The notes below the pieces were generated by a model. The model ran no database searches. It was given only the letters and a program-made list of their open reading frames with translations, and was not told the origin of the DNA. Position numbers and translations under genes: made by a program. Below, one piece after another: positions 11,854 through 42,120 of a stretch of 64,000 bases of DNA; position 1 is the stretch's first letter; each line of letters opens with the position of its first letter. Source of the stretch: a candidate division WWE3 bacterium (GTDB lineage Bacteria; Patescibacteriota; WWE3; JAPLWK01). The stretch covers positions 133,916-197,915 of the forward strand of contig JAPLWK010000010.1 of NCBI GenBank assembly GCA_026396615.1. The letters run 5' to 3'.

Positions 11854-11888
11854 TTGACAACTTCGTATAATATTCGTATATTATACCA
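11854..11888 (+). promoter_or_regulatory. lexA promoter with overlapping direct-repeat/palindromic operator
   Basis: TTGACA at about 11854, then TTCGTATA-ata-TTCGTATA (11-bp period), which also forms the palindrome GTATAATAT-N4-ATATTATAC. The -10-like TATATT lies ~6 nt before the ATG. Confidence 0.4.
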
Positions 11889-12503
11889 ATGCCACCAACT
11901 ACTTACCGCCGCCAAAAAGAAGTTCTCGATTTTGTCTCTCAGTATATTCAGAAATACGGCAGCTCCCCAACTTTACAGGAAATTGCTTCCGCATTAGGCT
12001 TAAGTTCTCTAGCCACCGTTCATCAGCATTTAGAAGCTCTGGAGAAAAAAGGTCTAATTAAAAAATTTGATGGTAATATTAGAGGATTTGAAGTGATTAA
12101 CGAAGTGATTACGCCAGCTTTAGAGGGTGTGGAAGTTCCAATCATTGGCTATATCGCCGCCGGGAAGCCGATTGAGGCTATTGAAAGTCCCCTAGACACG
12201 ATTCGAATTTCGGCCAGCATGCTGTCCGGTAAAAAGCGGGCCTTTGTTCTTCAAGTTCGCGGCGAAAGTATGATTAACGATGGCATTCTCGATGGCGACT
12301 TCGTAGTTTGCGAACAACAACAAACGGCTAATAATGGCGACATAGTGGTGGCTCTTATTAACGGCGCTACGGCCACTTTAAAGCGCTATTACAAGGAAAA
12401 AGATCGAATTAGACTTCAACCGGCTAATGATACGATGAAACCGATTTATGTTAAGAATGTTAAGATTCAGGGTAAGGTGGTGGGTGTAATTAGGCGTTAC
12501 TAA
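11889..12503 (+). CDS. lexA: LexA repressor
   Basis: N-terminal winged-HTH; C-terminal S24 peptidase with the Ser motif (VRGESM) and Lys (…LKRYYK…). 204 aa. Confidence 0.85.
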   Translation: MPPTTYRRQKEVLDFVSQYIQKYGSSPTLQEIASALGLSSLATVHQHLEALEKKGLIKKFDGNIRGFEVINEVITPALEGVEVPIIGYIAAGKPIEAIESPLDTIRISASMLSGKKRAFVLQVRGESMINDGILDGDFVVCEQQQTANNGDIVVALINGATATLKRYYKEKDRIRLQPANDTMKPIYVKNVKIQGKVVGVIRRY

Positions 12504-12511
12504 CCAATCTG

Positions 12512-12539
12512 TCATTCCGGGCTTGACCCGGAATCCAGA
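12512..12539 (-). repeat. GC-rich hairpin element, copy 1 (reverse orientation), upstream of uvrB
   Basis: Its reverse complement, CTGGATTCCGGGTCAAGCCCGGAATGAC, is identical to the copy at 30288-30315. 8-bp stem ATTCCGGG/CCCGGAAT. Confidence 0.5.
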
Positions 12540-12580
12540 AAATCTAACATAAATTTTTAATTAACAATTTAATCTGTTAC

Positions 12581-12609
12581 TGGATTCCGGCTCCGGGGCC
12601 GGAATGACG
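12581..12609 (+). repeat. GC-rich hairpin element, copy 2, ending ~11 nt before the uvrB ATG
   Basis: CTGGATTCCGGCTCCGGGGCCGGAATGAC. Stem ATTCCGGC/GCCGGAAT differs from copy 1 by a compensatory G:C to C:G swap. Confidence 0.5.
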
Positions 12610-12619
12610 TGTTTTATTT

Positions 12620-14701
12620 ATGGAATTCAAGCTTACCTCATCTTACAAGCCTGCCGGAGATCAGCCTCAGGCTATTAAGTCGCTATTAAGTAACTACAAA
12701 GCCGGACTTTCGGATCAGGTCTTACTTGGTGTTACCGGTAGTGGCAAGACTTTCACGGTGGCTAACGTTATCCAAGAAATTAAAAAGCCCACTTTAATTA
12801 TTTCGCACAACAAAACTTTAGCGGCCCAGCTGTATCAAGAATTTAAGGAGTTTTTTCCTAAAAATGCCGTGGAGTACTTTGTTAGTTACTACGATTACTA
12901 TCAACCGGAATCTTACCTCCCGGCTACTGACACTTACATCGAAAAAGATGCCGATATTAATGATGAAATTGATCGACTTCGTTTGCGAGCCACGGCGGCC
13001 TTAATGACGCGTTCGGACGTGATCATAGTGGCTTCCGTGTCAGCGATATATTCACTAGGTGATCCCGAAGAATATAGCCAGGCAATTTTAGAATTGAAAG
13101 TCGGATCAGCCACAACTTTACGTGCCCATGTTCTAAGTCGATTAATAGAAATGCATTATAATCGCAACGATTTTGAATCTAAAAGAGCGACTTTTCGCGT
13201 TAAAGGTGAAAACATTGAAGTTTGGCCGGCTTACGAAGATTACATTTTACGTTTGGAATATTTAGGGGAATCTTTATCTCGCATTTCCAAGCTTAATCCC
13301 ATTACTTTTGGGCAAATAGAACCTTTAAGTGAATTTGTACTTTATCCGGCCCGTCACTATGTAGCCGATCCGGAGACTTTTGATGAGGCTCTGGCGGCAA
13401 TTCAAGTGGATTTGGAGAAGCAACTTAAGTCGCTGGAAGGTCAAGGCAAGAAGCTTGAGGCTTATCGTTTAAAGCAACGCACTAAGTATGACTTGGAAAT
13501 GCTTAAAGAAGTCGGGTTTGTAAATGGTATTGAAAATTATTCGCGTTATTTTGACGGTCGGGCGCCCGGTTCGCCACCTTATACTTTACTTGATTTTTTT
13601 GCCCATCGTTTTGGTAAGGCTAGCTCTAAGGATTGGCTCCTAGTCGTCGACGAGTCCCACATTTCGATTCCCCAAATTCGGGGGATGTATAAAGGGGACC
13701 GCAGTCGCAAACAAACTTTGATCGACTTTGGTTTTCGGCTGCCATCGGCTTTGGATAATCGTCCTTTAGACTTTCCAGAGTTTGAAACTCGCATGCCACA
13801 AACTATTTATATGAGCGCAACGCCTAGTCCTTGGGAATTAACCAGGGCGACAGTGGCAGCCAGTGATTTGTCATCGCTGAGCGGTCAGAAAGCAACTTTG
13901 ACTCCAATTGTAGAGCAATTAATTCGTCCAACTGGCTTAATTGACCCCCAAATTACAGTTTTACCATCGAAAGACCAGATTAATGATTTACGATGTCGCA
14001 TTGAGGAAAGAATAAAAAATGGCCAGCGGGTCCTGGTTACAACTTTAACTAAAAGAATGGCCGAAGAATTATCTGATTATTTAAAGAATTTAAATATTAA
14101 AGTCACTTACCTGCATTCTGATATTCAAACTCTAGAGCGCAGCACCATTTTAGATGATTTACGACGTGGTAATTATGATGTCCTAGTTGGTATCAATTTG
14201 CTACGGGAAGGCTTAGATCTTCCAGAAGTGTCACTGGTCGCCATTCTTGACGCCGATAAGGAAGGTTTTTTGCGGAGTGAATCGGCTTTAATTCAAGTGA
14301 TGGGTCGGGCGGCTCGGCATTTACAAGGCGAAGTGGTCATGTACGCCGATAAAATTACTGATTCCATGCGACGAGCTATAGATGAGGTTGATAGACGACG
14401 GTCGATACAACTGTCCTATAATCAAGAACATAATATTACACCGGTGGGCATTACCAAGTCGATTCGCGATAAAATGGTGGAGTTTACGGCGGCCGAAATT
14501 GCCGAAAAATCTCACCCCACTGTATACAGTAAAAAAGGCGGCAAAGCTTCTTTAATCGACCTGGCTGATGTTCCGCCGTCTGAACGGAAGAAGTTTATTA
14601 AAGAGCTGGAACTAAAAATGCAAACGGCTGCCGAAGAGCTCAACTTTGAACTTGCCGCCCAAATTAGGGACGAGCTACTTGACATAAAGAAGAACCTCTA
14701 G
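12620..14701 (+). CDS. uvrB: Excinuclease ABC subunit B
   Basis: 693 aa. Walker A GVTGSGKTF, helicase motifs, and a C-terminal UVR domain (…ELNFELAAQIRDELLDIKK). Confidence 0.9.
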   Translation: MEFKLTSSYKPAGDQPQAIKSLLSNYKAGLSDQVLLGVTGSGKTFTVANVIQEIKKPTLIISHNKTLAAQLYQEFKEFFPKNAVEYFVSYYDYYQPESYLPATDTYIEKDADINDEIDRLRLRATAALMTRSDVIIVASVSAIYSLGDPEEYSQAILELKVGSATTLRAHVLSRLIEMHYNRNDFESKRATFRVKGENIEVWPAYEDYILRLEYLGESLSRISKLNPITFGQIEPLSEFVLYPARHYVADPETFDEALAAIQVDLEKQLKSLEGQGKKLEAYRLKQRTKYDLEMLKEVGFVNGIENYSRYFDGRAPGSPPYTLLDFFAHRFGKASSKDWLLVVDESHISIPQIRGMYKGDRSRKQTLIDFGFRLPSALDNRPLDFPEFETRMPQTIYMSATPSPWELTRATVAASDLSSLSGQKATLTPIVEQLIRPTGLIDPQITVLPSKDQINDLRCRIEERIKNGQRVLVTTLTKRMAEELSDYLKNLNIKVTYLHSDIQTLERSTILDDLRRGNYDVLVGINLLREGLDLPEVSLVAILDADKEGFLRSESALIQVMGRAARHLQGEVVMYADKITDSMRRAIDEVDRRRSIQLSYNQEHNITPVGITKSIRDKMVEFTAAEIAEKSHPTVYSKKGGKASLIDLADVPPSERKKFIKELELKMQTAAEELNFELAAQIRDELLDIKKNL

Positions 14702-14782
14702 TTATAATGCCCACAATATTCTAATCACAGGCAAGCGTTAATTAGACTTGCCGTTGTTATTATTACTACATCGGAGGCTCTC

Positions 14783-15040
14783 GTGGGTGGTCAAGCTCGT
14801 CATCCAGTGATCGCACAGAGAAGTTCTGGTTTCGTTCATAGTTCAGCGCAGGCATTTACAACCGCCTGGAACTACGTTCAAGATAAGCATCCTTGGGTTC
14901 CAACGGGGATGCTGCATCAAGGTGTTCCGTCGAAAGACCTGAATGCAAAAGCACTTAAAGCTTGGAACAGCCTTCCTAAAGACCAACAATGTGGTCAAGG
15001 GTTGGCGAAAAAGCTTAAGGGCAACTATCATATCAGTTAG
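14783..15040 (+). CDS. Hypothetical small protein (GTG start, strong SD) in the GC-rich uvrB-uvrA spacer
   Basis: 85 aa ORF. GGAGG sits 7 nt upstream of the GTG. Local G+C is visibly above the flanks. No recognisable domain. Confidence 0.3.
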   Translation: MGGQARHPVIAQRSSGFVHSSAQAFTTAWNYVQDKHPWVPTGMLHQGVPSKDLNAKALKAWNSLPKDQQCGQGLAKKLKGNYHIS

Positions 15041-15125
15041 TTGGTTAAACAGCCTGTTGGCAAGGGAAGGCTGTAATCTCAAATGTTCGCGAAAGATTCG
15101 ACAAAGTTTTCAGGAGAGATACATC

Positions 15126-15356
15126 ATGGGTTCCGCAAATAATTCAGGCAAAGTAGTAGCAAGTGTCAGATCGAGTTCTGTGGCGACCAAAGTAAATCCA
15201 ATGGCTTCGCCAAACTCTCAGAATGAATGTCCGCCCGAGGGCAGCATTTGTCCGAGTTGTGGAAAGGGTACTGTGCATTACGGTCGTTTTTCTCGTCGGC
15301 GTGTTTGCACACACTCCCAATGCGTCGTGAACTCGTACAGTATCTATCATTGCTAG
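15126..15356 (+). CDS. Hypothetical small zinc-ribbon protein
   Basis: An internal ATG of the 14943-15356 track ORF is preceded by AGGAGAG. It encodes 76 aa ending in CPSCGKGTVHYGRFSRRRVCTHSQC (C-x2-C…C-x4-C). Confidence 0.35.
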   Translation: MGSANNSGKVVASVRSSSVATKVNPMASPNSQNECPPEGSICPSCGKGTVHYGRFSRRRVCTHSQCVVNSYSIYHC

Positions 15357-15374
15357 TTAGCTTTGCGTAGGTTT

Positions 15375-15430
15375 GGCGGTGGAATTTTTCTCTACAGAGA
15401 GTTAAGTTTCACCGCCCTTTCATTTTTTTA
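15375..15430 (+). terminator. Terminator-like hairpin followed by a T-run
   Basis: GGCGGTG…CACCGCC stem (7 bp, large loop) followed by CTTTCATTTTTTT. Confidence 0.3.
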
Positions 15431-15473
15431 ATTTGAAATTTACAATTTAAAATTGAAAATTATACCTTTGTTA

Positions 15474-15502
15474 CTTGATTCCAGGTCTTGTCCCGGAATG
15501 AC
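15474..15502 (+). repeat. GC-rich hairpin element, copy 3 (degenerate), upstream of uvrA
   Basis: CTTGATTCCAGGTCTTGTCCCGGAATGAC. Same flanks (…GATTCC… / …CCGGAATGAC) as the other copies. One stem mismatch. Confidence 0.45.
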
Positions 15503-15564
15503 GTATCTGAGTGTGACCCTTTATAAATGCTTCAAAATATAGTAGAATACCAGATCGTCATCTT

Positions 15565-18450
15565 ATGGAAGAACTCATTATTCGCGGCGCCAGAGAGCAT
15601 AATTTAAAAAACGTCGATTTAACTATTCCCAAAAATAAATTAATAGTCTTTACCGGCGTTTCCGGCAGTGGTAAGTCCTCTTTGGCCATGGATACTATCT
15701 ATGCTGAGGGGCAGCGCCGTTACGTAGAATCTTTGTCTTCCTACGCCCGCCAATTCTTAGGCGTCATGGATAAGCCCGATGTCGACCTTATCGAAGGACT
15801 TAGCCCCGCAATTGCGATTGATCAAAAGTCGGCTTCTCATAACCCTCGTTCCACCGTTGGCACTATCACCGAAGTCTACGATTATCTTCGTCTTTTATAC
15901 GCTCGCGTAGGCCATCCCCATTGCCCCAATTGCGGTCGAGAAATTTCTCGGCAAACCATCGATCAAATTAGCGATGGTATCCTCGCTTTAGGGCCGGGGC
16001 GCTACATGATCATCTCCCCAATCGTAAAAGACCGCAAAGGCGAATATACGCATCTTTTTGAGAATCTGCGAAAGCAGGGGTTTGGCCGGGCCAGGGTTGA
16101 TGGGCAAGTGATAAGTTTGGATAGCGATTTTGATCTTATCAAAACAAACAAACACACTATTGAAGCCGTAATTGATCGTTTAGTGCTGGAAAAGAAAGTC
16201 TCTAAAGATACTATTACTCGAATTCGCCAGTCGGTAGAAACGGCTTTAAAGTTGGCTGATGGCGTGGCCATTGTTTCTCAAGTAACCGATAAAGCCTTTG
16301 AATTTCCGGAATCCCCGAAAAAGATGGAGGATCATCTATTTTCGGAGCGTTTTGCTTGTCCATTTTGCAATATTTCGCTGCCGGAACTGGAGCCCCGCAG
16401 TTTCTCTTTTAACTCACCGCATGGTGCCTGTCCTAAATGTCAGGGCCTAGGAACAGAACTTAAAATTAATCCGGCCATTATTTACAACCCCGATTTAAGC
16501 GTTCGTGAAGGCGGCATTTTTCCGTGGGCTAATGTAATGGAACATGAAACTTGGAGCGGCAGACTCCTCGAAACAGTGGCCAAAACTAATAATATTGACT
16601 TAAGTGTTCCGATTAGCCAGCTTTCGGATAGCCAACTACACTTAATCCTCTACGGCACCGGAAAAACAGCTTATGCCGTGAACGGTAAAAATCGATTTGG
16701 TAAAGAACGCACTTACGACACTACTTTTGAAGGCATTATTCCCAATTTAGAGCGCCGTTATAAAGAAACCGATTCCGATTATATTCGTCGGGAAATCGAG
16801 CGCTACATGGTTAAAGAGCTTTGTCCTTTATGTAAAGGGGTGCGGCTTAAAAAAGAAGTGCTGGGAGTGACTATTTTAGATTTAAATATTGCCGAGGCTA
16901 GCAATTTAACCATTAAAAAGTTTTTAGATTGGTCGGCTGATTTTAAAACTTTAAATAGTCGCGAACAAGAGATCGGGAAGGCGATTATTAAAGAAATAGA
17001 TGCCCGCTTAAATTTTCTTCTCGATGTTGGACTTGATTATTTAACCATTGACCGGGCCGCCAATACCCTCGCCGGAGGGGAAGCCCAGCGAATTAGGTTG
17101 GCTTCGCAAATTGGCTCCGGACTTTCCGGGGTTCTTTACGTCCTTGATGAGCCGTCAATTGGCCTTCATCAGCGTGATCAGGATCGACTTATTCAAACTC
17201 TCAAGCGCCTGCGGGACCTTGGAAACACGGTCATTGTCGTCGAACATGACGAGCAGACGATGCTTGAGTCCGATTACATTGTTGATTTTGGGCCAGGGGC
17301 TGGGGAGCACGGTGGCGAAATTTTGGCTCAAGGTACCCCAGACGAAATTAAGGCCAACAAAAAATCGATTACCGGGGCTTATCTTTCCGGCCGTCGTCAA
17401 ATTACCGTTCCCAATTTCAATCAAGAAGAAATTGACGTAAAAGTTAAGCCGTCATCTCGCGAGTTAGTCCTCATGAATGCCAGTCATAACAACCTAAAAA
17501 ACGTGACTATTAAAATTCCCTTGGCCAAATTGGTCTGCGTCACTGGTGTCTCAGGATCGGGAAAATCATCCTTGATTAATGAAACGCTATTGCGCCAACT
17601 GCGCCAAGAATTTAATCTTAAAAATGAGGAAAAACCTGGCGCTAACGATGGCATTACAGGCCTGGAGTACATTGATAAGGTGGTTGACATTGACCAGTCC
17701 CCAATCGGTCGAACGCCCCGCAGCAACCCTGCCACTTATACTAAAGCTTTTGATGAAATTAGAGAATTATTCGCGTCAACCCGAGAATCTCAATTACGCG
17801 GTTACAAATCAGGCCGTTTTAGTTTTAATGTTAAAGGTGGTCGTTGCGAAGCCTGCAAGGGTGACGGCCAAATTAAAATTGAAATGCAATTTATGCCGGA
17901 TATTTATATTGATTGTGAAGTATGTGATGGTAGGCGTTACAATCACGAAGCCTTGGAAATTGAGTATAAAGGCAAAAATATCTCCCAAGTTTTAGATATG
18001 ACGATTGATGAAGCGGCGATATTTTTTACCAACCATCCCGGTATAAAAAATAAACTGGATACTTTGCAGGACGTGGGTTTGGGCTACGTGCATTTAGGTC
18101 AGCCCGCACCAACTTTATCTGGCGGAGAGGCCCAAAGGATTAAACTGGCATCTGAGCTTTCGCGTCGCCAAACCGGCAAAACCCTGTATATTTTGGATGA
18201 GCCCACCACCGGCCTCCATTTTGCTGATTTAGAGCGTTTAATCGCCATTTTTAAGCGACTGGTTTCTTACGGCAATTCTGTCATTGTTATTGAACATAAT
18301 TTAGACGTAATTCGTTTTGCCGATCACATTATCGATTTGGGTCCGGAGGGTGGAGTGGGTGGTGGTCGGGTCATTGTCACTGGTACAGTTGCCGAAGTGG
18401 TGGCTTGCCAGGAAAGTTGGACTGGAAAATATCTAAAAGCGAAGTTATAA
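15565..18450 (+). CDS. uvrA: Excinuclease ABC subunit A
   Basis: 961 aa. Two ABC ATPase modules (GVSGSGKSSL twice; LSGGEAQR twice) and zinc-finger cysteines (CPNCG, CPFC…CPKCQG, CEACKGDG). Confidence 0.9.
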   Translation: MEELIIRGAREHNLKNVDLTIPKNKLIVFTGVSGSGKSSLAMDTIYAEGQRRYVESLSSYARQFLGVMDKPDVDLIEGLSPAIAIDQKSASHNPRSTVGTITEVYDYLRLLYARVGHPHCPNCGREISRQTIDQISDGILALGPGRYMIISPIVKDRKGEYTHLFENLRKQGFGRARVDGQVISLDSDFDLIKTNKHTIEAVIDRLVLEKKVSKDTITRIRQSVETALKLADGVAIVSQVTDKAFEFPESPKKMEDHLFSERFACPFCNISLPELEPRSFSFNSPHGACPKCQGLGTELKINPAIIYNPDLSVREGGIFPWANVMEHETWSGRLLETVAKTNNIDLSVPISQLSDSQLHLILYGTGKTAYAVNGKNRFGKERTYDTTFEGIIPNLERRYKETDSDYIRREIERYMVKELCPLCKGVRLKKEVLGVTILDLNIAEASNLTIKKFLDWSADFKTLNSREQEIGKAIIKEIDARLNFLLDVGLDYLTIDRAANTLAGGEAQRIRLASQIGSGLSGVLYVLDEPSIGLHQRDQDRLIQTLKRLRDLGNTVIVVEHDEQTMLESDYIVDFGPGAGEHGGEILAQGTPDEIKANKKSITGAYLSGRRQITVPNFNQEEIDVKVKPSSRELVLMNASHNNLKNVTIKIPLAKLVCVTGVSGSGKSSLINETLLRQLRQEFNLKNEEKPGANDGITGLEYIDKVVDIDQSPIGRTPRSNPATYTKAFDEIRELFASTRESQLRGYKSGRFSFNVKGGRCEACKGDGQIKIEMQFMPDIYIDCEVCDGRRYNHEALEIEYKGKNISQVLDMTIDEAAIFFTNHPGIKNKLDTLQDVGLGYVHLGQPAPTLSGGEAQRIKLASELSRRQTGKTLYILDEPTTGLHFADLERLIAIFKRLVSYGNSVIVIEHNLDVIRFADHIIDLGPEGGVGGGRVIVTGTVAEVVACQESWTGKYLKAKL

Positions 18451-18456
18451 AGTTGT

Positions 18457-19977
18457 ATGCTCAAAGGATTAGCGATTATAACCCTGTCAACCCTTTTGCT
18501 ATTAGTTGGGTCAACTGACGTAAAAGCAGCCGACTCTAAATTTTCTACTTCTTACAAAACTACCTATGACGTTGATATTAGCGGTTTAACGACAGTCACT
18601 TCCGAGATTAGTTTAACCAATAAATCCGCCAATTTTTACGCTTCCAATTACGTTTTAACGTTAAGTTTTCCGCATATTTTAGAAGTTACTGCCTATGATC
18701 GCCTGGGTAATTGTCCGGTGACTCTTAATGGCTCAGAAATTAAGGTCCTGTTCAATGATAAAGTTGTTGGTTTAAATAGCATACTTCATTGGACTCTAAT
18801 TTATAAAACTCCCGATCTGGCAATAAAAAAAGGCCGGATTTGGGAAGTTGATCTTCCTAAAGTTGAAGGGAGTATAGATCTAGCCGATTACGTTACGGTT
18901 CTTAAGGTGCCCCAAAGCTTTGGTGACGATGCCCAAATGGCCAATACCGCAATTAGTAGCGGGGTAGCTGGTAGTAAAAACTTCTATGTTTTCTCTAAAA
19001 ACTTATTACTTAATCAAGGTGTCGCCGCTGTTTTTGGCGATTATCAAGTTTTTAAATATACTCTTAAGTATCATTTAAAAAACCTAAACCTACTACCGCA
19101 TTTTGAAGAAATTACTCTACCTCCAGGTGTTGCTAATTATCAAGAAACTTTTATTACTAGTTTATCACCCCGTCCCATTTCGTCACGAGTTGATAGTGAC
19201 GGTAATTTGCTGGCCAAGTATTTTTTGTGGTGGGGTCAAGATTTAGAAATCACTTTAGACGGAGAGGCCAAAGTTTATAATCGTCAAATTAATCCTTTTG
19301 TTGGAGGTAATGTTACGGCCATAACCTCTAACCTAAAATATTTGACTAATGCGGCAAGTTTTTGGGAGGTAACTGATCCGATTATTAAAAAGATTGCTTC
19401 TGATTTATATAATCCTACTAAAACCGTTTCTCAAAATGCTCAAAATATTTACACTTATGTCGTGGCCACTCTAAAATATAATAATGCCAAGGGTTTTGAT
19501 AATCGTTTAGGAGCCGTAGCAACTTTAAAAACTCCCGATAACGCCGTATGCACTGAATTTTCAGATCTCTTTGTGGCACTGGCTCGGTCAAATGGTATTC
19601 CGGCTCGGGAACTCGAGGGCTACGCTGCGACTAATCAAGATAATCGACCAATTTTAAATGACGTGCTACACGCCTGGGCTGAGTATTATGATCCGGTCTT
19701 TGGTTGGGTGGCCGTTGATCCAACGTGGGGCAATACCGCTAAAACTGATTTCTTCACGCATCTTGACGCTAACCATTTGGTCTTTGTCATACATGGTGTG
19801 TCGCCGGTATCACCCGCTCCGGCCGGAGCTTTTAAACTGGATATTACAGAAAAGGATCAAGTAGCGGTAGTTTTCGCGGATGCGGTCACTACAGATGCGA
19901 CTAAAGTAGTCCCACTTTCCGTCGACAATTCTTTGGGGACTAAAATTATTAGGTTTTTGGCTGGCATTAGTAATTAA
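18457..19977 (+). CDS. Secreted transglutaminase-like (Cys-protease fold) domain protein
   Basis: Signal peptide. C-terminal Cys…His…Asp triad context (…NAVCTEFSDLF…HAWAEYYD…WVAVDPTW). 6-bp and 3-bp gaps to uvrA and uvrC. Confidence 0.55.
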   Translation: MLKGLAIITLSTLLLLVGSTDVKAADSKFSTSYKTTYDVDISGLTTVTSEISLTNKSANFYASNYVLTLSFPHILEVTAYDRLGNCPVTLNGSEIKVLFNDKVVGLNSILHWTLIYKTPDLAIKKGRIWEVDLPKVEGSIDLADYVTVLKVPQSFGDDAQMANTAISSGVAGSKNFYVFSKNLLLNQGVAAVFGDYQVFKYTLKYHLKNLNLLPHFEEITLPPGVANYQETFITSLSPRPISSRVDSDGNLLAKYFLWWGQDLEITLDGEAKVYNRQINPFVGGNVTAITSNLKYLTNAASFWEVTDPIIKKIASDLYNPTKTVSQNAQNIYTYVVATLKYNNAKGFDNRLGAVATLKTPDNAVCTEFSDLFVALARSNGIPARELEGYAATNQDNRPILNDVLHAWAEYYDPVFGWVAVDPTWGNTAKTDFFTHLDANHLVFVIHGVSPVSPAPAGAFKLDITEKDQVAVVFADAVTTDATKVVPLSVDNSLGTKIIRFLAGISN

Positions 19978-19980
19978 TTT

Positions 19981-30239: not shown

Positions 30240-30268
30240 TTGACGAAATAGTAAAGAGCGATCATAAT
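30240..30268 (+). promoter_or_regulatory. Putative rarA promoter (TTGACG-17-CATAAT)
   Basis: Read directly. It places hairpin copy 4 inside the 5'UTR. Confidence 0.35.
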
Positions 30269-32719: not shown

Positions 32720-32802
32720 TCTTCCTTGCATAAATCCCTAGCCTTTAGGTTATAAATAAAACGACAAGGAGAAGCTACAAGCTTTTTATCTGTTAGTAGG
32801 AC

Positions 32803-33258: not shown

Positions 33259-33412
33259 ACTAAAATGATACTTTTCTTAGTTAAACTTGTAAACCCTTAA
33301 CTTTAGAAGGTTATCAGTTGGGGGGGAGCTTTACTGTTATGTTTGGGACCCGAGTCCCAAACTTACCACCTGCTAGTGTTAAATCTGGCAAATAGACATG
33401 CTGGTTTACCCT

Positions 33413-33631
33413 TTACAGGGTGGAGAAGAACTCAGATAAAGTCACACCCAAACCTTTGGACACTTTTTCTATATTTTTCAAGGAAATGTTTTTCTCACCA
33501 CGTTCTACTGCTCCTATGTAGGTGTAGTGCAAGTGTGATCTATCCGCTAAACCCTCTTGTGTTAAGCCTTTTAGCTTCCTAAGTTGCTTAATTCTATTTC
33601 CAAATCTGTCTAGTATTTTACTTACAGGCAT
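33413..33631 (-). CDS. XRE-family HTH transcriptional regulator (Cro/CI-like)
   Basis: 72 aa. HTH …LKGLTQEGLADRSHLHYTYIGAVERGEKNISLKNIEKVSKGL… Divergent from the next gene across an AT-rich switch region. Confidence 0.7.
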   Translation of the reverse strand: MPVSKILDRFGNRIKQLRKLKGLTQEGLADRSHLHYTYIGAVERGEKNISLKNIEKVSKGLGVTLSEFFSTL

Positions 33632-33751
33632 ATAAAAATGATTGCTATTACAATTAAAGGTTATTTGGATAATGCCAATGTATCCAGAGTCGAAGAATAG
33701 TAATTATGTTATAATGTGGTTATAGGTAAGCATTTCGTAGTTTAGATACAT

Positions 33752-34837
33752 ATGAAACTTGTTGAGAGGTTAAAAACTGATAGAAAGTTTTTACTGGCTG
33801 TTATCTGTGTCTTTTTAGCAATCTTACTTATCCCCTATTTAACGCTACCCTGTTTAGTTATCTGGTGGTTTTATAAGAAATCAAAAATATCAAAAAGAAC
33901 AAAGATCATTACTACAGCTGGTTTTGGCTGTATTTTCGCACTACTGGGGGCCTGGATGTCTATATCCTACTCAAAGGATGCAGAACCTCACCTACAATTA
34001 TTAAGCCCTGCCTTAATTTCTACTGTTCAAGCAGACAAAGTTGTTATTAAGGGTACTTACGAGCCAGCTGATAGGAAGATTTGGATAAACGACACTGAAG
34101 TAACAGCATCTAATGGGAGCTTTGAATATACCTATCCCCTAAAAATGGGAGAAAACAAGGTTGAAGTTAAAGCTGGTGATTGGAAAAGAGCCTCAGTTAG
34201 TCTAGTAATTACCAGAGAGATTTCAGCCGAGGAAAAAACACGACAGGAGGCAACTAATAGAAAAGTGACAGAAGAAGCTACAAAGTCCACTGTTGCACCA
34301 ACACCAAAACCTACGCCATCAGCGAGTCCCACTGTTGCCACACCCAAAGCAAGTCCAGAGCCTACAAAAACACTCACCCCAGTAGTAACTCATTCTTCCA
34401 TTATGGATCAGCTTTGGACTGCACTTGATGATTCTATTAAAACCAGAAAAGGCTACGATATTCAGTATGAAGATATAGATAAAAGGGTCACAGTTACTCA
34501 AACAGGCAGTACTTTTTGGGATGAAACAGGTACTGTGCGGGGTGGTTACTCAACCTTAGTTGCATATGGATCTAAAGCCTTCAAAATATCTGGGGTTGAT
34601 GTCGTAAAGGTAGTTATTAGGGGTGAATTCACTGATACTTATGGGAAAGATAGTACAGAGGATGCTATGCGTATATCTATGGCAAAAACAGAGTTTGATA
34701 AATATGATTGGGGCAATCTAATATACCAGCCTATTTATACGCAAATGGAGAACTCCACAATTGAGTATTACATTCATCCTGCAATTTTGAAAAATGTTAA
34801 GTTAAAAGACCTTTATCTTTCGCCTTTAGTCTCCTAA
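33752..34837 (+). CDS. Membrane-anchored protein with Pro/Thr-rich linker
   Basis: Two N-terminal TM helices, a Big-like segment, and a PTPKPTPSASPTVATPKASPEPT linker. Confidence 0.4.
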   Translation: MKLVERLKTDRKFLLAVICVFLAILLIPYLTLPCLVIWWFYKKSKISKRTKIITTAGFGCIFALLGAWMSISYSKDAEPHLQLLSPALISTVQADKVVIKGTYEPADRKIWINDTEVTASNGSFEYTYPLKMGENKVEVKAGDWKRASVSLVITREISAEEKTRQEATNRKVTEEATKSTVAPTPKPTPSASPTVATPKASPEPTKTLTPVVTHSSIMDQLWTALDDSIKTRKGYDIQYEDIDKRVTVTQTGSTFWDETGTVRGGYSTLVAYGSKAFKISGVDVVKVVIRGEFTDTYGKDSTEDAMRISMAKTEFDKYDWGNLIYQPIYTQMENSTIEYYIHPAILKNVKLKDLYLSPLVS

Positions 34838-34978
34838 ACAGCACTTTTCGTGGGAAGCATTAGCATTAGCCTAGAGGTAATAGGCCCATTGTTGGGAACA
34901 AAGAGTTAAGAAAGCACAACGTAGAAATAAAAACTTTAAATGATGAAATAACAAAGAAAAAAAAGAGGTGATAATTAA

Positions 34979-35602
34979 ATGAAAAAATTACTAAAATGGG
35001 GTGTAATTGCAATAGGGGGATTTTTTGTACTGTGCTTAATTGTTGGTTTAACTACAGGAGACAAGAAGGGTGCCAGTACTAATAACGCCCTTCAAAAGGG
35101 AATGGAACAAGCCAAACAAACCCTTGAGAGCAGTGAAACTCCAGTGCAAGAAACTAGTCAAGCAAAGCAAGTCGCTAATACTAGTGGTACTGTGGCACAA
35201 CAAATAGAAGCAAAAGTGCGAGCATCCATATCAGGTAGTAATAAATTCAAGGACGTTCAAGTAACAGATTTCACTAAACTTGGTGAGGGTTACAACGTGT
35301 TTGTAACAATCAACGTTGACGATAACTTAACAACTGGCTTCATTTCCAAAGGGATTTGGCAAGATATGTCTAATATTTATACAGCTTTGTATAAAGTGCC
35401 AATGAACATAGATACAGTCATAATTTTTGCTGATATGAACACTGTTGATAAATATGGGAAAACGAATAACGAAACTGTGATGAAAACTAGATTGACTAAA
35501 GCTGAGGCGCAAAAAGTGAATTGGAATTATGCTCCCAAATCAACACTTGATTTGCAAATATTACCCAATGTTTGGGAAACTGTTCTTGACATGTTTAAGT
35601 AA
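34979..35602 (+). CDS. Secreted protein
   Basis: Signal/TM segment MKKLLKWGVIAIGGFFVLCLIVGL. Preceded by AAGAGGTG. Confidence 0.4.
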   Translation: MKKLLKWGVIAIGGFFVLCLIVGLTTGDKKGASTNNALQKGMEQAKQTLESSETPVQETSQAKQVANTSGTVAQQIEAKVRASISGSNKFKDVQVTDFTKLGEGYNVFVTINVDDNLTTGFISKGIWQDMSNIYTALYKVPMNIDTVIIFADMNTVDKYGKTNNETVMKTRLTKAEAQKVNWNYAPKSTLDLQILPNVWETVLDMFK

Positions 35603-35914
35603 GCTAATCCACTAACAAAAGCCTCCTGAATAAGGGGGCTTTTCTGTTGTCTAAGTAGTTCAGTAGGCGCTGGTTAGGTATAAGAAACTGTAGTTAGTTA
35701 TAAATTCATCACTTAATAACAAAAACGAATCTCTACGAGTGCTACAGAGGCTTCTAGGCATAGTCTAGTAGTTCAAATTTCTAAAAATAGCAGGGGTATA
35801 TCGCCTAGAGGATCCTTAGGGCAAAGTGTAGAGAAATGCTGTAACGACAACTAATTGTGTACATAGGGAATGATACAAATTATAATCAAATAATTATAAA
35901 TATTGTAAATTAGT

Positions 35915-36295
35915 ATGAATTCGATAAGCACGATAGGACACTCTAACTATAGTCTTACGTTTTTCGTTGAAGCGCTTGTAAAATACGATATTGAGGTGCT
36001 TATAGACGTACGTTCTATTCCTTACTCCAAAAGAAACCCTCAGTTTAATCGAGAGAGTTTGGCTGCAGTGCTTCCCAATCATAAAATTACATATCTCTTT
36101 AGAGGCCACAATTTAGGTGGACTATATGAGAACGTTAATTTTATTGAAACAATTGATGAATTGCTTAAACTTTCCGAAGACAGAAAGGTTGTTCTGATGT
36201 GCAGTGAAGGCGACTACCACAAGTGCCACAGGTACCTGATTTTAACTCCAGCACTAGAAGCCAAAGGAGTAAAAGTCAAACACATTACACCGTAA
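35915..36295 (+). CDS. DUF488-family protein
   Basis: …ISTIGHSNYS…LIDVRSIPYSKRNPQFNRESL…GHNLGG… matches the DUF488 signature. Confidence 0.5.
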   Translation: MNSISTIGHSNYSLTFFVEALVKYDIEVLIDVRSIPYSKRNPQFNRESLAAVLPNHKITYLFRGHNLGGLYENVNFIETIDELLKLSEDRKVVLMCSEGDYHKCHRYLILTPALEAKGVKVKHITP

Positions 36296-36332
36296 GAATA
36301 AGTAAGTATAATTAAGACATTAAAAATGCATT

Positions 36333-37226
36333 ATGAAAAAGATAATTCCAGTTCTTGAGGATTCGAAGCCAAAGAGTTTTGGCAATAACAATGACCCTTA
36401 CACTTTCTTGGCAGAGTTTTGCGAATTAAATACAGAAAGTTGGCAGAAGATTGAGAATTTCTCAAAAAGATGGGATGTTTATATTGACGTAGTTGCTAAA
36501 TATACCCCAAAACAACGTGATATTAAAGAAAGATTCTCACAGGCTAAGGAAAAATATGAGTCGTTAATCAATAAGGTTAGAGGTTTAGACTATACGTATG
36601 CCAACTATTCAGAGTTGGAAGAACTAAATAAAGATTTATCAGAAATTAAAGTTGCTGTTATATCAGAAAATCCTGGATTTGGTAAATTGTTTAACTACCT
36701 GCCAGTCTTTTGTAACTCGGACACTCTCGAAACCCGTTTTACCAGTATAGAAATTCTAGGACACCCTGAAATATCTCCTAAGGCTGCCAAAATAAAAATT
36801 CTAATTGAACCTACAAATCAAAGGAATTGGGTGCCCATACGAAAAAAACTAGACAGCAAACTCGTTAAGGATATATTGACACAAATAAATTATCCACTAG
36901 ACGAAAAGTTTTTGCATCAGTGGGTAGTTGCGTCTACGAAATTGATTGGCCCTCGCATTCGCTACGAAGCTACTCTTAAACTAGGAGAGCCGAGTGAACT
37001 TCTTGTATACGCACCAAATACTCTTAGAGGAATGCATACATCAGGATGTGGCATCGAAAGTATAGTTGCTCAAAATATATGGCGTGTTTTATTTGGTAAA
37101 AACGACAAAATAAGATTATGCCGAGTTTGTGGTAGACCTGCGTCCCGACCTAACAGTAAAACCTGCAAACAAGCTATCTGTAGGAATAGGTTCAGGAGTT
37201 TAAGAAATAGGAAAATTTACGTGTAG
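36333..37226 (+). CDS. Hypothetical protein with basic Cys-rich C-terminus
   Basis: Ends in …LCRVCGRPASRPNSKTCKQAICRNRFRSLRNRK (zinc-ribbon-like). Confidence 0.4.
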   Translation: MKKIIPVLEDSKPKSFGNNNDPYTFLAEFCELNTESWQKIENFSKRWDVYIDVVAKYTPKQRDIKERFSQAKEKYESLINKVRGLDYTYANYSELEELNKDLSEIKVAVISENPGFGKLFNYLPVFCNSDTLETRFTSIEILGHPEISPKAAKIKILIEPTNQRNWVPIRKKLDSKLVKDILTQINYPLDEKFLHQWVVASTKLIGPRIRYEATLKLGEPSELLVYAPNTLRGMHTSGCGIESIVAQNIWRVLFGKNDKIRLCRVCGRPASRPNSKTCKQAICRNRFRSLRNRKIYV

Positions 37227-37280
37227 GGTTTCGTGACAGATTTTCGTATTCAAAAATTGATTTCGTAAGATGTTTGCATA

Positions 37281-37604
37281 ATGAAAGATGCAAACAGATT
37301 TACAACAAAAGACCTCCATCTCTCCGCATTTTTAGTCGTATCCTTTTTAAAAGTTATAGAGATTGTCCCCGATAATTTATCGGGTGAGTCTTGGTTTATA
37401 TTTGAAGATTGCGATAAATGCAACGCTTTGGAGAAGAACTACTGGAGTCAGATAGCACAAGTTGAGCCAATCGCATACATAAATGCAATTAAGACATTAA
37501 AGCAACGGATACTGCGTTACAACGCTAGTCCGAGCATTCGGGGGGGTCTGAGGAAACGAACGACGACGGGGCAACGGCGAAGCAAACTGGGAATTAATTT
37601 ATAA
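37281..37604 (+). CDS. Hypothetical protein
   Basis: 107 aa with an Arg-rich tail. Weak coding call. Confidence 0.3.
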   Translation: MKDANRFTTKDLHLSAFLVVSFLKVIEIVPDNLSGESWFIFEDCDKCNALEKNYWSQIAQVEPIAYINAIKTLKQRILRYNASPSIRGGLRKRTTTGQRRSKLGINL

Positions 37605-38203
37605 CAAAAATAAGTGGAACGAGGGGTGTAGGTTAAAAGCTCTTAACCCTCGAAACCCTGCGGAGGCTAAGGCATCCTCAGGAGAGATAGAGCGAAGGGT
37701 ACGCAGAGGTAAAAACTGATAAACGTATCCACTGAAAATCCCTTGGGGGGTTTGGGGGGCCAATGAGAAAATACGATCGCCTCAGGAGGCTCAGCTCGCT
37801 CTGGGAATAAATATATGACTTCATTTAATAAATTTTTAACTATGGAGGTTACGAAAATATCAATTGGTAAAGATAAGCTTATTTATTTTACAGTTAAGCA
37901 CCCCGTGTCAACAAACTGGCCAAGCTTTACTTTCAAATGGCAGGATATCGAGAAGAATGAGCAACTTAAAAACATTTTTGACTCACTAATAAAATATGAA
38001 ATCTAAAATGAAAAAGAATATCAAAATTGTAGTTTCATCGAATCTAAACAATCTGACGCCAAGGCAGAAAAGTAATGCGCGTAAAGCAGTTGGTATTTTT
38101 ATGTCAAAAGTGTTAAATAACGTTGCTGTGACAACATAAACCCTTGCATTAGGGGGTAAAAAAGTTAGAATAAAAGTATACAAAACAAAAACCAGAGACA
38201 CCC

Positions 38204-39949
38204 TTGCGAGATGAAGCTCTGGTTTTGAACACGGTAAGTGTTATGAATTATTGTACTACACCAAACCCTATTTCTAAAGATTTTGTAGAAGTGATTTCGG
38301 AGTTAGAGTCTTCACGCTTAAATGACCCCCTATTTCTAGAAAGCCTTAGCCAACCCTACTCATTGAGAGTTGCTATTTACTTAAGGGTATCCACAAAAGA
38401 CCAGGCTACAGAAGATAAAGTATCCCTAGATATTCAGGAGTCTGAATGTAATTCATATCTTAAACAATTTAGTAGTTACGTAATTGCGGGAACGTACTGC
38501 GATGGTGGAAAAAGTGGTGGGACTATGGTGGGCAGGGATGAGTTTAACAAAATGATAGCTGACGCTAAAGCGGGAAATATAGATGTTCTGCTCGCTTGGA
38601 GTACCGACAGGTTAGCAAGAAATGTAGATGAAATGACGCAACTTAGGGCAGAACTAAGAAAAATAAACGTTCAGGTTACGACTACCAAAGAGCCTGCCGA
38701 AATTATTGACCCCCGCAAACTTACGTTGGAAGGCAATGAAACAATGCAAAAAATACTAGCTTACGTTCAAGATTGGAGTGCTGAGTGTGATAAACGAAAA
38801 ATATCGGAGAGGTTTAGGATTGGGAAAATCGGAAAGGCCGAAAAAGGATTGATACCAGTCAAAACACCTTACGGGTTTAGAAAGTCAGTCAAATACATAA
38901 ATAACGACCCGAAGCAGAAAATTGAGGAAGATGTAACGGTACCAGATGAGATTTGTGTGGTGAAAGATATTTTTAACTATTACGACACCAACTCGTGGGG
39001 AATACGAAAAATTGTTGATGAACTTAATCTTAAAGGCATTAAATCACCAAAAGGAGGAATCTGGTGTTATTCTAGCGTTAAATACACTCTGCAAAATCCT
39101 ACTTACTGTGGGTTGGTTAGGTACGGCTGGCGACTAAGTAAGAGCAAAATTAGTAGAGCAAGGTTACAACAGGGCCATAAAGGAATTATTGTTAAAGGAA
39201 AGCACCAAGCTGTCATTAACCCCGAGCAGTTTAAGCGAGTGCAAGATAAACTTAAACGCAGAGCAGAACTAGGAGGTAAAGCCGTACACTCCAAAGGTTT
39301 ATTAACTGGGATCCTTAAATGTGGCAGGTGTGGTGGAAGTGCCTATTTATGCAGTTATCACCATTGGCTAGCGTACGAAAAAAATAAGAAGGACAGAACC
39401 AAGTACACGAAAGGTTCTGCCTATATGTGTGGCAATTATTCCCAGCACGGAAAGACAGTCTGCAGCCAAAGGTATATATTATCTCAAGGTAAAATTGAAG
39501 AAGCAGTAGTTAAGCAAATACGCGAGTTAGCCAACAGTAAGGAAACGCAAGAGGAGTTTATTAAGCAAATGAAGAAAAATAGGGTTAAAGATATTAAGCA
39601 GGAACTGGTAATGCTAAACAAAACGAAGGAGGATTTACTAATACGTAAGGATAGACTAAAGGCTGCGTATTTGGCTGGCACAATTCAACTAGAAGAGTAC
39701 GAACAAGATAGGAGGAAGCTGGAAGAAAGAATTAAAAATCTGGAAAACAAGTGTGCAGAAACTCAGGAGGAGCTTTTAAGGGAGGCGGACGCCGAAAGAC
39801 ACTCTAGGGACGCCATTTTAGCTCTTGCCAATTTTGACGAGATCTGGGAAAAGTCCGAATTTATGCACAAAAAAGAGCTCCTGCAGACTCTCCTCGAAAA
39901 GGTAACTATCGTAGGTGGTGTGGTGAACATCAGTTTCAGAAATTGTTAA
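38204..39949 (+). CDS. Large serine recombinase (integrase)
   Basis: Resolvase catalytic domain (…AIYLRVSTKDQ…LLAWSTDRLARN…), recombinase domain, zinc ribbon (CGRCGG…C…C) and C-terminal coiled-coil. 581 aa. Confidence 0.8.
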   Translation: MRDEALVLNTVSVMNYCTTPNPISKDFVEVISELESSRLNDPLFLESLSQPYSLRVAIYLRVSTKDQATEDKVSLDIQESECNSYLKQFSSYVIAGTYCDGGKSGGTMVGRDEFNKMIADAKAGNIDVLLAWSTDRLARNVDEMTQLRAELRKINVQVTTTKEPAEIIDPRKLTLEGNETMQKILAYVQDWSAECDKRKISERFRIGKIGKAEKGLIPVKTPYGFRKSVKYINNDPKQKIEEDVTVPDEICVVKDIFNYYDTNSWGIRKIVDELNLKGIKSPKGGIWCYSSVKYTLQNPTYCGLVRYGWRLSKSKISRARLQQGHKGIIVKGKHQAVINPEQFKRVQDKLKRRAELGGKAVHSKGLLTGILKCGRCGGSAYLCSYHHWLAYEKNKKDRTKYTKGSAYMCGNYSQHGKTVCSQRYILSQGKIEEAVVKQIRELANSKETQEEFIKQMKKNRVKDIKQELVMLNKTKEDLLIRKDRLKAAYLAGTIQLEEYEQDRRKLEERIKNLENKCAETQEELLREADAERHSRDAILALANFDEIWEKSEFMHKKELLQTLLEKVTIVGGVVNISFRNC

Positions 39950-40095
39950 AAAATATAGCAGACTAGAGGCTTATTAATTTATCTTCTTAAATCCCAATAT
40001 AAGCATATAAATAACCTTCAAACAGTAGTCAATTTAGCTAGTAGAAAGTCTAATATGAGCAGATACTCAACACCATTAGTGCTTTCATTAAAAGT

Positions 40096-40539
40096 ATGCG
40101 GGCCAGTCAACCGGACGCGGCTCTTTACTATCTCGCTCGCATGATTGATGCCGGGGAGGACCCGCTCTTCATTGCGCGGCGCATGGTCGTTTTTGCTTCG
40201 GAAGATATCGGAATGGCTAATTCGGCCGCTTTAAGTGTCGCCAACGCTGTCTTTAGGGCTTGCGAAGTTATTGGCTACCCGGAATGTCGCGAAAATCTAG
40301 CGCACGGTGTGGTTTATTTGTCATGCGCCACTAAAGATCGAGGTGCCTATGATGCTTATATGAAAGCTCTTGTGGACGTTAAAGAATTTGGTAATTTGCC
40401 AATTCCGCTGTCCGTTCGCAACGCCCCCACGCAGCTAATGAAAGATCTGGATTACGGCAAAGGCTACCAAGCTTATACTAATAAGTCGTATTTGCCGGAA
40501 AAAATAAACGATCGTCACTACTACCAAAAACCTGTTTAA
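40096..40539 (+). pseudogene. rarA: Displaced original 3' end of rarA (remnant, attR side)
   Basis: The 147 aa align residue-for-residue with the rarA C-terminus (MRAS…DAALYYLARM…DAGEDPLFIARRMVVFASEDIGMAN…). There is no 5' part. Confidence 0.7.
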
Positions 40540-41267
40540 GCGCCACGAGTGAGGTAAATAATTCCAATTCCAAGTAGAAATAATAAAAATGAAGAGACAA
40601 TATTAAGACGTGAATTATCGGTTCTAACTTCCGGGATTAAGTCTGCCGCGGCAATGTAAATAAAACCACCGGCAGCAATTGGTAAAAGATACGCAATGAT
40701 TAATGGTGACGACTGACCTAAAAAGTAGCCGCAAATTCCCCCTAAAATTGCGATCATAGAAATCCCAAAATTAGCAAGAACGGCTTTTTTACGGCCGAAG
40801 CCGGCGTGTAAAAATACTCCCACATCACCAATTTCTTTGGGAATTTCGTGAAAAATGACGGCGGTACTAATAGTGACGCCAAGGGCCGGACTTGTTATAA
40901 AAGCGGCGGCCACAATTAAGCCATCTATAAAATTGTGAACCGCTTCGCCAATTAGATTTAGAGTGCCAAAATGCTTATGGGCATCTTCCGCTTCGTTGCA
41001 GTGATGCCAGTGCAGGACTTTCTCCAGGAGTAAAAAACAGACGAATGACGCTAGAGTAACTTCAAACAAGGTCGTCACGGGAAGTCTGGCCGCCCCCTCT
41101 GGTAGCAGATCCAAAAAAGCTCCACCCATTAAAGTTCCGGCGGCTAAAGAAACTAACGAGAGTAATATTTTTGAGAGGATTTTTTGATTTATAACTAGCG
41201 TCAGCGCTCCCAGTAAGGACCCAAAACCAACGATTGATAAAGCGATAATAATATAGAAGAGTGTCAC
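40536..41267 (-). CDS. ZIP-family metal transporter (ZupT-like)
   Basis: HNFIDGLIVAAAF and HEIPKEIGDVGVFLHAGF motifs. 8 TM helices. Confidence 0.7.
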   Translation of the reverse strand: MTLFYIIIALSIVGFGSLLGALTLVINQKILSKILLSLVSLAAGTLMGGAFLDLLPEGAARLPVTTLFEVTLASFVCFLLLEKVLHWHHCNEAEDAHKHFGTLNLIGEAVHNFIDGLIVAAAFITSPALGVTISTAVIFHEIPKEIGDVGVFLHAGFGRKKAVLANFGISMIAILGGICGYFLGQSSPLIIAYLLPIAAGGFIYIAAADLIPEVRTDNSRLNIVSSFLLFLLGIGIIYLTRGA

Positions 41268-41283
41268 GAGGCCATTTTACACT

Positions 41284-41715
41284 TTAAACGATGTTTCGAC
41301 CATCGTATTCTTTAAACCAGCTATCAATTGGGTTTTGATCTTCAGGGAAACCGTTGTAGTTTACCAATATCTCTGATTCTTTTGCGATATCTGTAACCGC
41401 GACATAAACCAAAAGTTCGTTAGTGTAATCAAAAACATATTCTGCGTTAGGTTGATAGGAGTGGTTGTATAGCATGGCGTAACCAAGAGGCAGGCACCAG
41501 TTGTTATCGTCCCAATCGTAATAATAATTGTCGATGATGTTTCCAGACGGTCGAGATTCAAGCTTCTTTCTTTCATCTTCGTATTTAATAAGTATCAAAG
41601 GACATTTTTCTATAACTTCACCCTTTTTAATATCACTGGACGCAAACATTCCTCGGCACTTTAAAGTTTCCGACCAACCAACATAAACCGGCCATTTGGG
41701 GTAAATACTATTCAT
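41284..41715 (-). CDS. SET-domain protein (putative protein-lysine methyltransferase)
   Basis: GRGMFASSDIKKGEVI…, NHSYQPNAEY (NHSCxPN-like) and …ELLVYVAVTDIAKESEILVNY post-SET-like tail. 143 aa. Confidence 0.6.
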   Translation of the reverse strand: MNSIYPKWPVYVGWSETLKCRGMFASSDIKKGEVIEKCPLILIKYEDERKKLESRPSGNIIDNYYYDWDDNNWCLPLGYAMLYNHSYQPNAEYVFDYTNELLVYVAVTDIAKESEILVNYNGFPEDQNPIDSWFKEYDGRNIV

Positions 41716-41908
41716 AAATCATGTGCTCAAACCACCGCTCTTGAAATTTCACCGCTTTTTCAATCTCCTCATTTTGCATTGTAGTTCCTTCTACAGTCTT
41801 CCCAAGAAATGTTTTTGCAAGCTTTAAGGATTCAGATTCATTCATATTAAAATAAAACTCCTCTTTCGTAATGTAAAAATTTACTAAACTAGTGGAATTA
41901 TATAACAA
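41708..41908 (-). CDS. Hypothetical small protein overlapping the SET gene start
   Basis: 66 aa with an 8-nt overlap. Weak coding call. Confidence 0.3.
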   Translation of the reverse strand: MLYNSTSLVNFYITKEEFYFNMNESESLKLAKTFLGKTVEGTTMQNEEIEKAVKFQERWFEHMIYE

Positions 41909-41970
41909 ATGATTGGTATTTAAAGGGTTTTATAACTATGTTTCAAACTAGCTTTCGAAAGTAATTTATC

Positions 41971-42045
41971 TGGCTGGGGAGCTTGGAGTCGAACCAAGAA
42001 TACCCACCTCCAAAGGGTGGTGTCCTACCATTAGACGACTCCCCA
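41971..42045 (-). tRNA. tRNA-Gln (anticodon UUG)
   Basis: Reverse complement is TGGGGAGTCGTCTAATGGTAGGACACCACCCTTTGGAGGTGG…CTTGGTTCGACTCCAAGCTCCCCAGCCA. Anticodon loop CTTTGGA. Confidence 0.8.
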
Positions 42046-42091
42046 AAACGTCGCCGCATGTGCATTATACCCATTTAAATCTAATTCCGCT

Positions 42092-42120
42092 TTGACATTC
42101 GTACTTTATTCGGTAATATT
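42092..42120 (+). promoter_or_regulatory. Promoter/operator of the dinB operon: TTGACA directly followed by TTCGTActtta-TTCGGTAatat
   Basis: Same 11-bp-period TTCGTA direct repeat as at lexA, in the same position relative to the -35 box. Confidence 0.4.

Follow-up and report, generated by a model that had tools for sequence, protein, structure and literature searches.

A stretch of 64,000 nucleotides (nt) from a candidate division WWE3 bacterium (contig JAPLWK010000010.1, positions 133,916 to 197,915), referred to here as the window, includes the gene for LexA and an operon that begins with a small open reading frame (ORF) followed by dinB, the gene for a Y-family translesion polymerase. Both transcription units are preceded by a direct repeat of TTCG placed just after the -35 box of the promoter, and the question raised by this arrangement is whether the repeat is the site through which LexA controls the two units and, if so, whether it is a LexA box of a new kind. 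The reading preferred here, at a probability of about 0.9, is that both sites are putative SOS operators of the Patescibacteria direct-repeat type, bound by the LexA protein encoded at 11889–12503. A lineage-specific direct-repeat LexA operator had been proposed in a preliminary description of the sequence; located between -35 and -10, it is supported by conservation of the repeat at lexA and at small-ORF/dinB operons across Patescibacteria.

At lexA the elements follow one another in the order TTGACA, ac, TTCGTATAATA, TTCGTATATTA, tacca, and the ATG start codon at 11889. The -35 hexamer TTGACA is located at 11854–11859, and the candidate operator at 11862–11883 is made up of two 11-nt direct-repeat units, TTCGTATAATA (11862–11872) and TTCGTATATTA (11873–11883). 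The -10 hexamer TATATT (11877–11882), assigned from the promoter scan (TTGACA-17-TATATT, 11/12 matches) and from the geometry, lies within the second unit and ends 6 nt 5' of the ATG. At the dinB operon the order is TTGACA, TTCGTACTTTA, TTCGGTAATAT, taaaac, and ATG at 42126. Here, the -35 hexamer TTGACA is at 42092–42097, the candidate operator at 42098–42119 (units TTCGTACTTTA, 42098–42108, and TTCGGTAATAT, 42109–42119), and the -10 hexamer TAATAT at 42114–42119, again within the second unit and ending 6 nt 5' of the ATG (promoter scan, TTGACA-16-TAATAT, 10/12 matches). All of these elements are on the forward strand. In both promoters the repeat starts 0–2 nt past the -35 hexamer, and the ATG follows 5–6 nt after the second unit. 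A repeat search at lexA returned the 11-nt direct repeat and a near-perfect inverted repeat (12 nt, 92% complementary). The letters of both sites had been read exactly in the preliminary description, and the shared TTCG repeat, the 11-bp spacing and the placement right after the -35 box reported there were seen at both promoters; the sites had also been located correctly, apart from an end coordinate that was ~1–2 nt off, which is immaterial.

The bare pattern TTCG-N7-TTCG is not rare in the window, where 4 occurrences were observed and 3.1 are expected. The composite pattern TTGAC-N0-3-TTCG-N7-TTCG was observed twice, as compared with an expectation of 0.02, and none of 100 shuffled sequences reached two. 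A position weight matrix built from other genomes only was used to score both strands of the 64 kb, and its top two matches are the lexA site at 16.6 bits and the dinB operon site at 13.8 bits. When the regions upstream of the 57 ORFs were scanned, the best scores were 16.6, 13.8, and 12.7 bits, followed by 5.9 bits. Markov simulations of the window gave ~3.4 matches of ≥12 bits per window, and since they reach equal scores, the matrix score was rejected as an argument for significance when taken alone. Since chance alone can produce such scores, it is position and conservation that carry the case.

Conservation was assessed in 80 loci from GTDB species genomes, each coding for a LexA relative with 51–63% identity, and 77 of these loci were usable. 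One common architecture was found upstream of lexA, TTGAC(A)-(0–2 nt)-TTCGGGTAWTn-TTYGKnTA, with T1, G4, T12, T13, and G15 invariant. Phylogenetic footprinting, which had been suggested previously, thus revealed that the motif is kept 5' of lexA: 70 of the 77 patescibacterial species genomes have a site of ≥12 bits no more than 150 nt upstream of the gene. TTGAC stands directly 5' of the first unit at 47 of the 70 orthologous lexA sites. The density of sites of ≥15 bits is 5.9 per kb upstream of lexA but 0.017 per kb in other parts of these loci, an enrichment of ~350-fold, as measured with a group matrix that was trained on the lexA upstream regions themselves. Because of this circularity, the pattern derived from the window, relaxed to TTYG, served as an independent check. 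TTGAC-N0-3-TTYG-N7-TTYG has exactly one match in each of 59 of the 105 fetched loci (~600 kb), and all 59 matches are on the coding strand just 5' of lexA or of the small ORF, with none elsewhere in the loci. The motif is a direct repeat across the whole group, and the window shares the 11-nt start-to-start register with all relatives.

The site is similarly kept at the second unit. A metagenome scan with DinB yielded six loci, and homologues of the small ORF were then fetched individually. In seven independent related small-ORF/dinB operons, the site was found right after TTGAC and just 5' of the small ORF, scoring 26.6 (L081), 23.6 (L082), 15.9 (L085), 13.8 (L095), 25.7 (L096), 14.2 (L097), and 25.0 bits (L098). 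On the short contigs L095–L098 the operator is the sole match of ≥11 bits. A further locus, L084, has dinB without the small ORF and a site of 11.9 bits.

The lexA gene (11889–12503, forward strand) codes for a protein of 204 amino acids with an N-terminal winged-helix domain (LexA_DNA_bind, PF01726, E = 2e-18) and a C-terminal S24 peptidase domain (Peptidase_S24, PF00717, E = 4e-34). The AAG motif at residues 90–92 (Ala91-Gly92), Ser127 (in GESM), and Lys165 (in TLKR) align with A84-G85, S119, and K156 of Escherichia coli LexA, respectively. The protein is 100% identical to LexA of a candidate division WWE3 metagenome-assembled genome (MAG), and its close homologues are all from Patescibacteria, also known as the candidate phyla radiation (WWE3, Microgenomates, and Parcubacteria).

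The window's own clade is represented by five lexA promoters, from the window, L088, L089, L100, and L103, whose LexA proteins are 76–100% identical. The promoters are TTGACAac-TTCGTATAATA-TTCGTATATTA in the window, TTGACAtc-TTCGTATTTCC-TTCGTATATTA in L088, TTGACAgc-TTCGTATTTTC-TTCGTAAAGTT in L089, TTGACAaac-TTCGTATTTTG-TTCGTATTATT in L100, and TTGACTtc-TTCGTATTATC-TTCGTAGTATA in L103. TTCGTA-N5-TTCGTA is present in all five, and the 11-nt register is kept as the intervening letters vary. The recognition helix of LexA reads VHQHL or IHQHL in the 12 full-length closest LexA clusters (P0001–P0012) only, and VHEHL in 107 more distant ones; P0013, an N-terminally truncated record without the helix, was left out of this count. 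The lexA promoters that go with the Glu-type helix have TTCGGG or TTTGGG. As judged by these promoters, TTCGTA is a clade-specific local variant of the group consensus TTCGGGTA with its TTCGGG half-site. At lexA the GG-to-TA change, at positions 5–6 of the half-site, is seen in both operator units, and at dinB in the first. Gln46 of the window LexA aligns gap-free with Glu45 of E. coli LexA, which PMC3091678 includes in its list of helix III residues that contact DNA. The co-variation of Glu46/Gln46 with the operator is suggestive, and points to LexA itself as the binder.

The identity of the binder is the point on which the least improbable alternative turns, namely that some other repressor uses the repeat as its operator and controls lexA and dinB. 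The comparative data show conservation of the site and not the identity of the protein bound to it, and damage regulators other than LexA exist in other bacteria. However, nearly all members of the group have the site in the promoter of lexA itself, as would be expected of autoregulation, and where the half-site sequence differs, a DNA-contacting residue of the LexA recognition helix differs with it. Furthermore, Table S2 of PMC8565304 gives LexA of two patescibacterial lineages, Candidatus Collierbacteria GW2011_GWB2_45_17 and a Parcubacteria MAG, as experimentally validated (from PMID 28618189). A repressor other than LexA is therefore regarded as highly improbable.

The position of the repeat raises another alternative, in which no repressor is involved and the repeat reflects the spacer and -10 composition of strong AT-rich leaderless promoters. 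The repeat does lie wholly within a consensus sigma-70-type promoter, with the second unit overlapping the -10 hexamer. A -35/-10 pair in the leaderless-type position was found at six window ORFs, so that four genes besides lexA and the small ORF share this geometry, but these four promoters lack the motif. The conserved letters, TTCG or TTYG(G), are not -10-like and are held in a fixed 11-bp register, and lexA and dinB operons are the only places in the ~600 kb of related loci where the composite pattern occurs. Composition of the promoter is thus an even less probable explanation than a different repressor.

The promoters themselves are of the type that the preliminary description had suggested to be leaderless, and their geometry supports this suggestion. 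The start codons of lexA and the small ORF are fixed by conserved N-termini, and no Shine-Dalgarno (SD)-like sequence was found 5' of either gene. As the -10 hexamer ends 6 nt before the ATG and an SD is absent at both promoters, the lexA and small-ORF/dinB transcripts are probably leaderless. Group-wide, 28 of the 70 lexA sites start 24–40 nt before the ATG, and an SD-like sequence accompanies 1 of these 28, as compared with 27 of 41 in the long-leader class. The window is SD-poor, with an SD-like sequence 5–18 nt upstream in 13 of 57 ORFs. A literature search on leaderless translation in Patescibacteria returned nothing relevant.

The least probable of the explanations considered, that the true operator is the 22-bp palindrome GTATAATAT-tcgt-ATATTATAC to which LexA binds symmetrically and that the direct repeat is a by-product, draws on the 12-nt inverted repeat at lexA of the window and on the palindromic nature of most LexA boxes, but was rejected because the palindrome is not kept in the four nearest relatives (there is no inverted repeat in the promoters of L088 and L100 and none but unrelated 6-nt repeats in those of L089 and L103, whereas all four retain the TTCGTA cores and the direct repeat), the dinB site has no such inverted repeat, and the motif across the group is a direct repeat. 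Hence, the palindrome reported earlier is indeed present at lexA of the window, but it is peculiar to this genome and incidental. In seven loci from other patescibacterial genomes (L027, L037, L042, L052, L064, L068, and L069), a site TTCGGGAAAnnTACGCCCGAA is located ~60–90 nt upstream of lexA; it includes inverted TTCGGG/CCCGAA arms as well as a direct TTCG/T(A)CG register, and may represent a palindromic form related to the direct-repeat box.

With LexA preferred as the binder of the direct repeat, the second part of the question is whether the box is new. So far as can be judged from papers that cite the original study, the window sites are an instance of the Patescibacteria direct-repeat box published in 2017 in Environ Microbiol and not a new motif class. 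The abstract of that study, by Sánchez-Osuna, Barbé and Erill, is said to report a novel, experimentally validated LexA-binding motif with an 'unusual direct-repeat structure', together with a core regulon that is small and conserved. As far as the box is described in the citing papers, the likeness lies in the bacterial group, the direct-repeat structure, and the location in the lexA promoter; a position in front of translesion genes was also seen here, in the dinB operon of the window and the seven related operons. The difference lies in the half-site and the helix, which are TTCGGG/TTTGGG and Glu46 in the group and TTCGTA and Gln46 in the window. In Collierbacteria GW2011_GWD2_45_10 (L099), the lexA promoter is TTGACA-TTTGGGTATTG-TTTGGTAATAA-7 nt-ATG; LexA of this genome is 57% identical to that of the window, and the recognition helices are nearly identical (SSLATVH(E/Q)HL).

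Direct-repeat recognition has independently evolved several times in LexA, and the Patescibacteria study is cited among the cases (PMC7739468, citing PMID 28618189). The alphaproteobacterial box GTTC-N7-GTTC, found also in Acidobacterium, is like the present one a direct repeat of a 4-nt core with 11 bp from start to start, as given in PMC8565304. However, its core GTTC is offset by one base from TTCG, and the LexA lineage is different. GTTC-N7-GTTC has only two matches in the window (14823 and 29562), which is chance level, and neither is near these promoters. The LexA direct repeat described for Balneolaeota, TTACACATATTTTWTACATA (PMC7739468), evolved independently and likewise controls lexA and translesion polymerases, but is unrelated to that of the window in sequence and phylum. 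The Gram-positive (Cheo) box CGAAC-N4-GTTCG shares the TTCG/GTTCG letters in one half-site and overlaps lexA and Y-family polymerase promoters, but it is a palindrome, whereas the box in the window is a direct repeat. No match to CGAAC-N4-GTTCG with ≤2 mismatches was found at 11800–11900 or 42050–42130, and the window as a whole has 14 such matches, as compared with 24 expected by chance. The Gram-positive and alphaproteobacterial boxes were therefore ruled out as the identity of these sites. The earlier statement that the sites are unlike known boxes holds for these two types, but not in the sense of a box without precedent, as the direct-repeat Patescibacteria motif, going by the papers that cite it, had already been published and validated.

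Operation of the sites can be envisaged as follows. A LexA dimer would bind the two TTCG-led half-sites, the starts of which are 11 bp apart; as this spacing is one helical turn, both half-sites would lie on one side of the double helix. The direct repeat fills the 16–17 nt spacer and covers the -10 hexamer, and given this geometry and the established mechanism of LexA, the bound repressor would block RNA polymerase. In this way LexA would repress its own gene (autoregulation) and the operon of the small ORF, dinB (translesion polymerase) and dus. Repression would be lifted after DNA damage, once RecA had stimulated LexA to cleave itself at Ala91-Gly92 through the Ser127/Lys165 dyad; RecA-dependent induction is to be expected from the presence of the Ala-Gly site and the Ser/Lys dyad.

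Several points weigh against assignment of the sites as LexA operators of the Patescibacteria type. The analysis covers sequence anatomy, conservation, location specificity, and protein features, and it is from these that we infer, for this organism, that LexA binds and represses, that the units are inducible, and where transcription starts. The group-matrix scores of the two sites, 16.6 and 13.8 bits, are modest and attainable by chance in simulated sequence. The match to the consensus published in 2017 is drawn from conservation and from citing papers rather than from direct comparison. The co-variation of Glu/Gln with the operator is suggestive only, because it comes from a single clade and possibly reflects one evolutionary event. 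Finally, dinB of the window is frameshifted, so that the regulated polymerase may be non-functional, or else the assembly may be wrong.

The extent of the regulon was considered first around lexA, where one forward-strand block extends from 10887 to 21264 and includes pfkB (10887–11849), lexA, uvrB (12620–14701, assigned by Pfam), two small ORFs, uvrA (15565–18450), a transglutaminase-like gene, and uvrC (19981–21264). In L091 and L093, a transglutaminase-like gene is directly 5' of lexA. The matrix scan of ORF-upstream regions of the window found no operator-like site in front of uvrA, uvrB, or uvrC, in agreement with the earlier observation that these genes lack the motif. A site at 15086 (10.4 bits), in or beside an unannotated ORF ~480 nt upstream of uvrA, was judged to be a chance match.

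In three close relatives, L088, L089, and L100, uvrB starts 4–16 nt past the lexA stop codon, and the simplest reading is that the two genes there share one transcription unit. The corresponding gap in the window is 116 nt. It includes a ~100-nt perfect-stem hairpin (gtcattccgg...ccggaatgac; 12511–12608, forward strand) with a T-rich tail, which is terminator-like (fold -45.2 kcal/mol, z = -5.4) and is not found in the close relatives. The 28-nt left arm of the hairpin recurs exactly at 30288–30315 on the reverse strand, near the rarA/acyltransferase intergenic region, and the hairpin looks like a small dispersed palindromic repeat. It may terminate or attenuate read-through, uncoupling uvrB from the lexA promoter; it is also possible that uvrB of the window is a downstream member of the lexA transcription unit. 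The claim that the box controls only lexA and the translesion-polymerase operon is not established from 64 kb, and is probably too narrow given the position of uvrB in the three relatives.

A weaker third site also bears on that claim. The candidate TTCGTCAAATCTTCGGTATT at 30228–30247 on the reverse strand (12.7 bits) is the third-best in the window in the matrix scan. It is located 36–55 nt upstream of an acyltransferase gene (Acyl_transf_3; 29065–30192, reverse strand) and ~80 nt from the divergent, replication-associated rarA. The sequence 5' of the site is TTTACT-at, without a consensus -35. The chance expectation for such matches is ~0.2–0.35 in the promoter-proximal sequence examined, and the site may be either a chance match or an extra SOS target.

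The operon that follows the second putative operator begins with the gene for a conserved protein of 86 amino acids and of unknown function (42126–42386, forward strand). This protein gave no match in Pfam, and 8 of 40 members of its family matched DUF6504 weakly. The family is large, with at least 523 cluster representatives (50% clustering) at E ≤ 1e-3. A confident AlphaFold model of the protein is all-beta with seven strands (predicted local distance difference test score, pLDDT, 89.5), and no match was found when it was compared with folds in the PDB. Possibly, the protein assists the Y-family polymerase as an accessory factor. The gene for the polymerase itself, dinB (42370–43616, forward strand), is split by the frameshift, with the Pfam domain IMS on 42370–43194 and IMS_C on an overlapping ORF at 43179–43616. 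A tblastn search with intact relatives of 408–418 amino acids placed the change of reading frame near 43158–43170; unless the assembly is wrong at this point, the split gene is a pseudogene. A dihydrouridine synthase gene (43613–44617, forward strand; Pfam Dus) overlaps the dinB stop codon by 4 nt and is probably the last gene of the operon. In L081, the operon runs on into an SRAP (yedK-type) gene. A divergent tRNA-Gln gene is located just upstream of the dinB promoter.

Between the two operator sites, the window includes a full-length rarA/mgsA gene at 30328–31476 and a displaced 3' fragment of rarA at 40096–40539 that is 75% identical to rarA residues 232–375. The fragment is adjoined by a gene for a large serine recombinase (38204–39949). 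The GC content is 0.37–0.385 between 32 and 40 kb, as compared with 0.41–0.44 in flanking 4-kb windows. The segment at 31000–40540 is a probable integrated element.

The LexA sites of this WWE3 bacterium reveal no new regulatory principle and are mechanistically ordinary. What this analysis adds is the TTCGTA/Gln46 variant, the non-conservation of the palindrome, a likely linkage of lexA and uvrB, and the wide conservation of the 86-amino acid protein. A raw MAG is enough to make out directly the small SOS regulon of the uncultured Patescibacteria: lexA under its own control, the translesion-polymerase operon headed by the conserved 86-amino acid protein, and, in relatives, uvrB. It is conceivable, though the odds are somewhat against it, that the SOS operator was retuned within one WWE3 clade, and that a single change of Glu46 to Gln went with the shift from TTCGGG to TTCGTA. 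If the link is causal, Glu46-to-Gln/TTCGTA would be a natural minimal specificity switch, and would show how a LexA box can drift without loss of the regulon. Glu46/TTCGGG and Gln46/TTCGTA make up a natural variant pair in which direct-repeat recognition and the drift of specificity may be studied.

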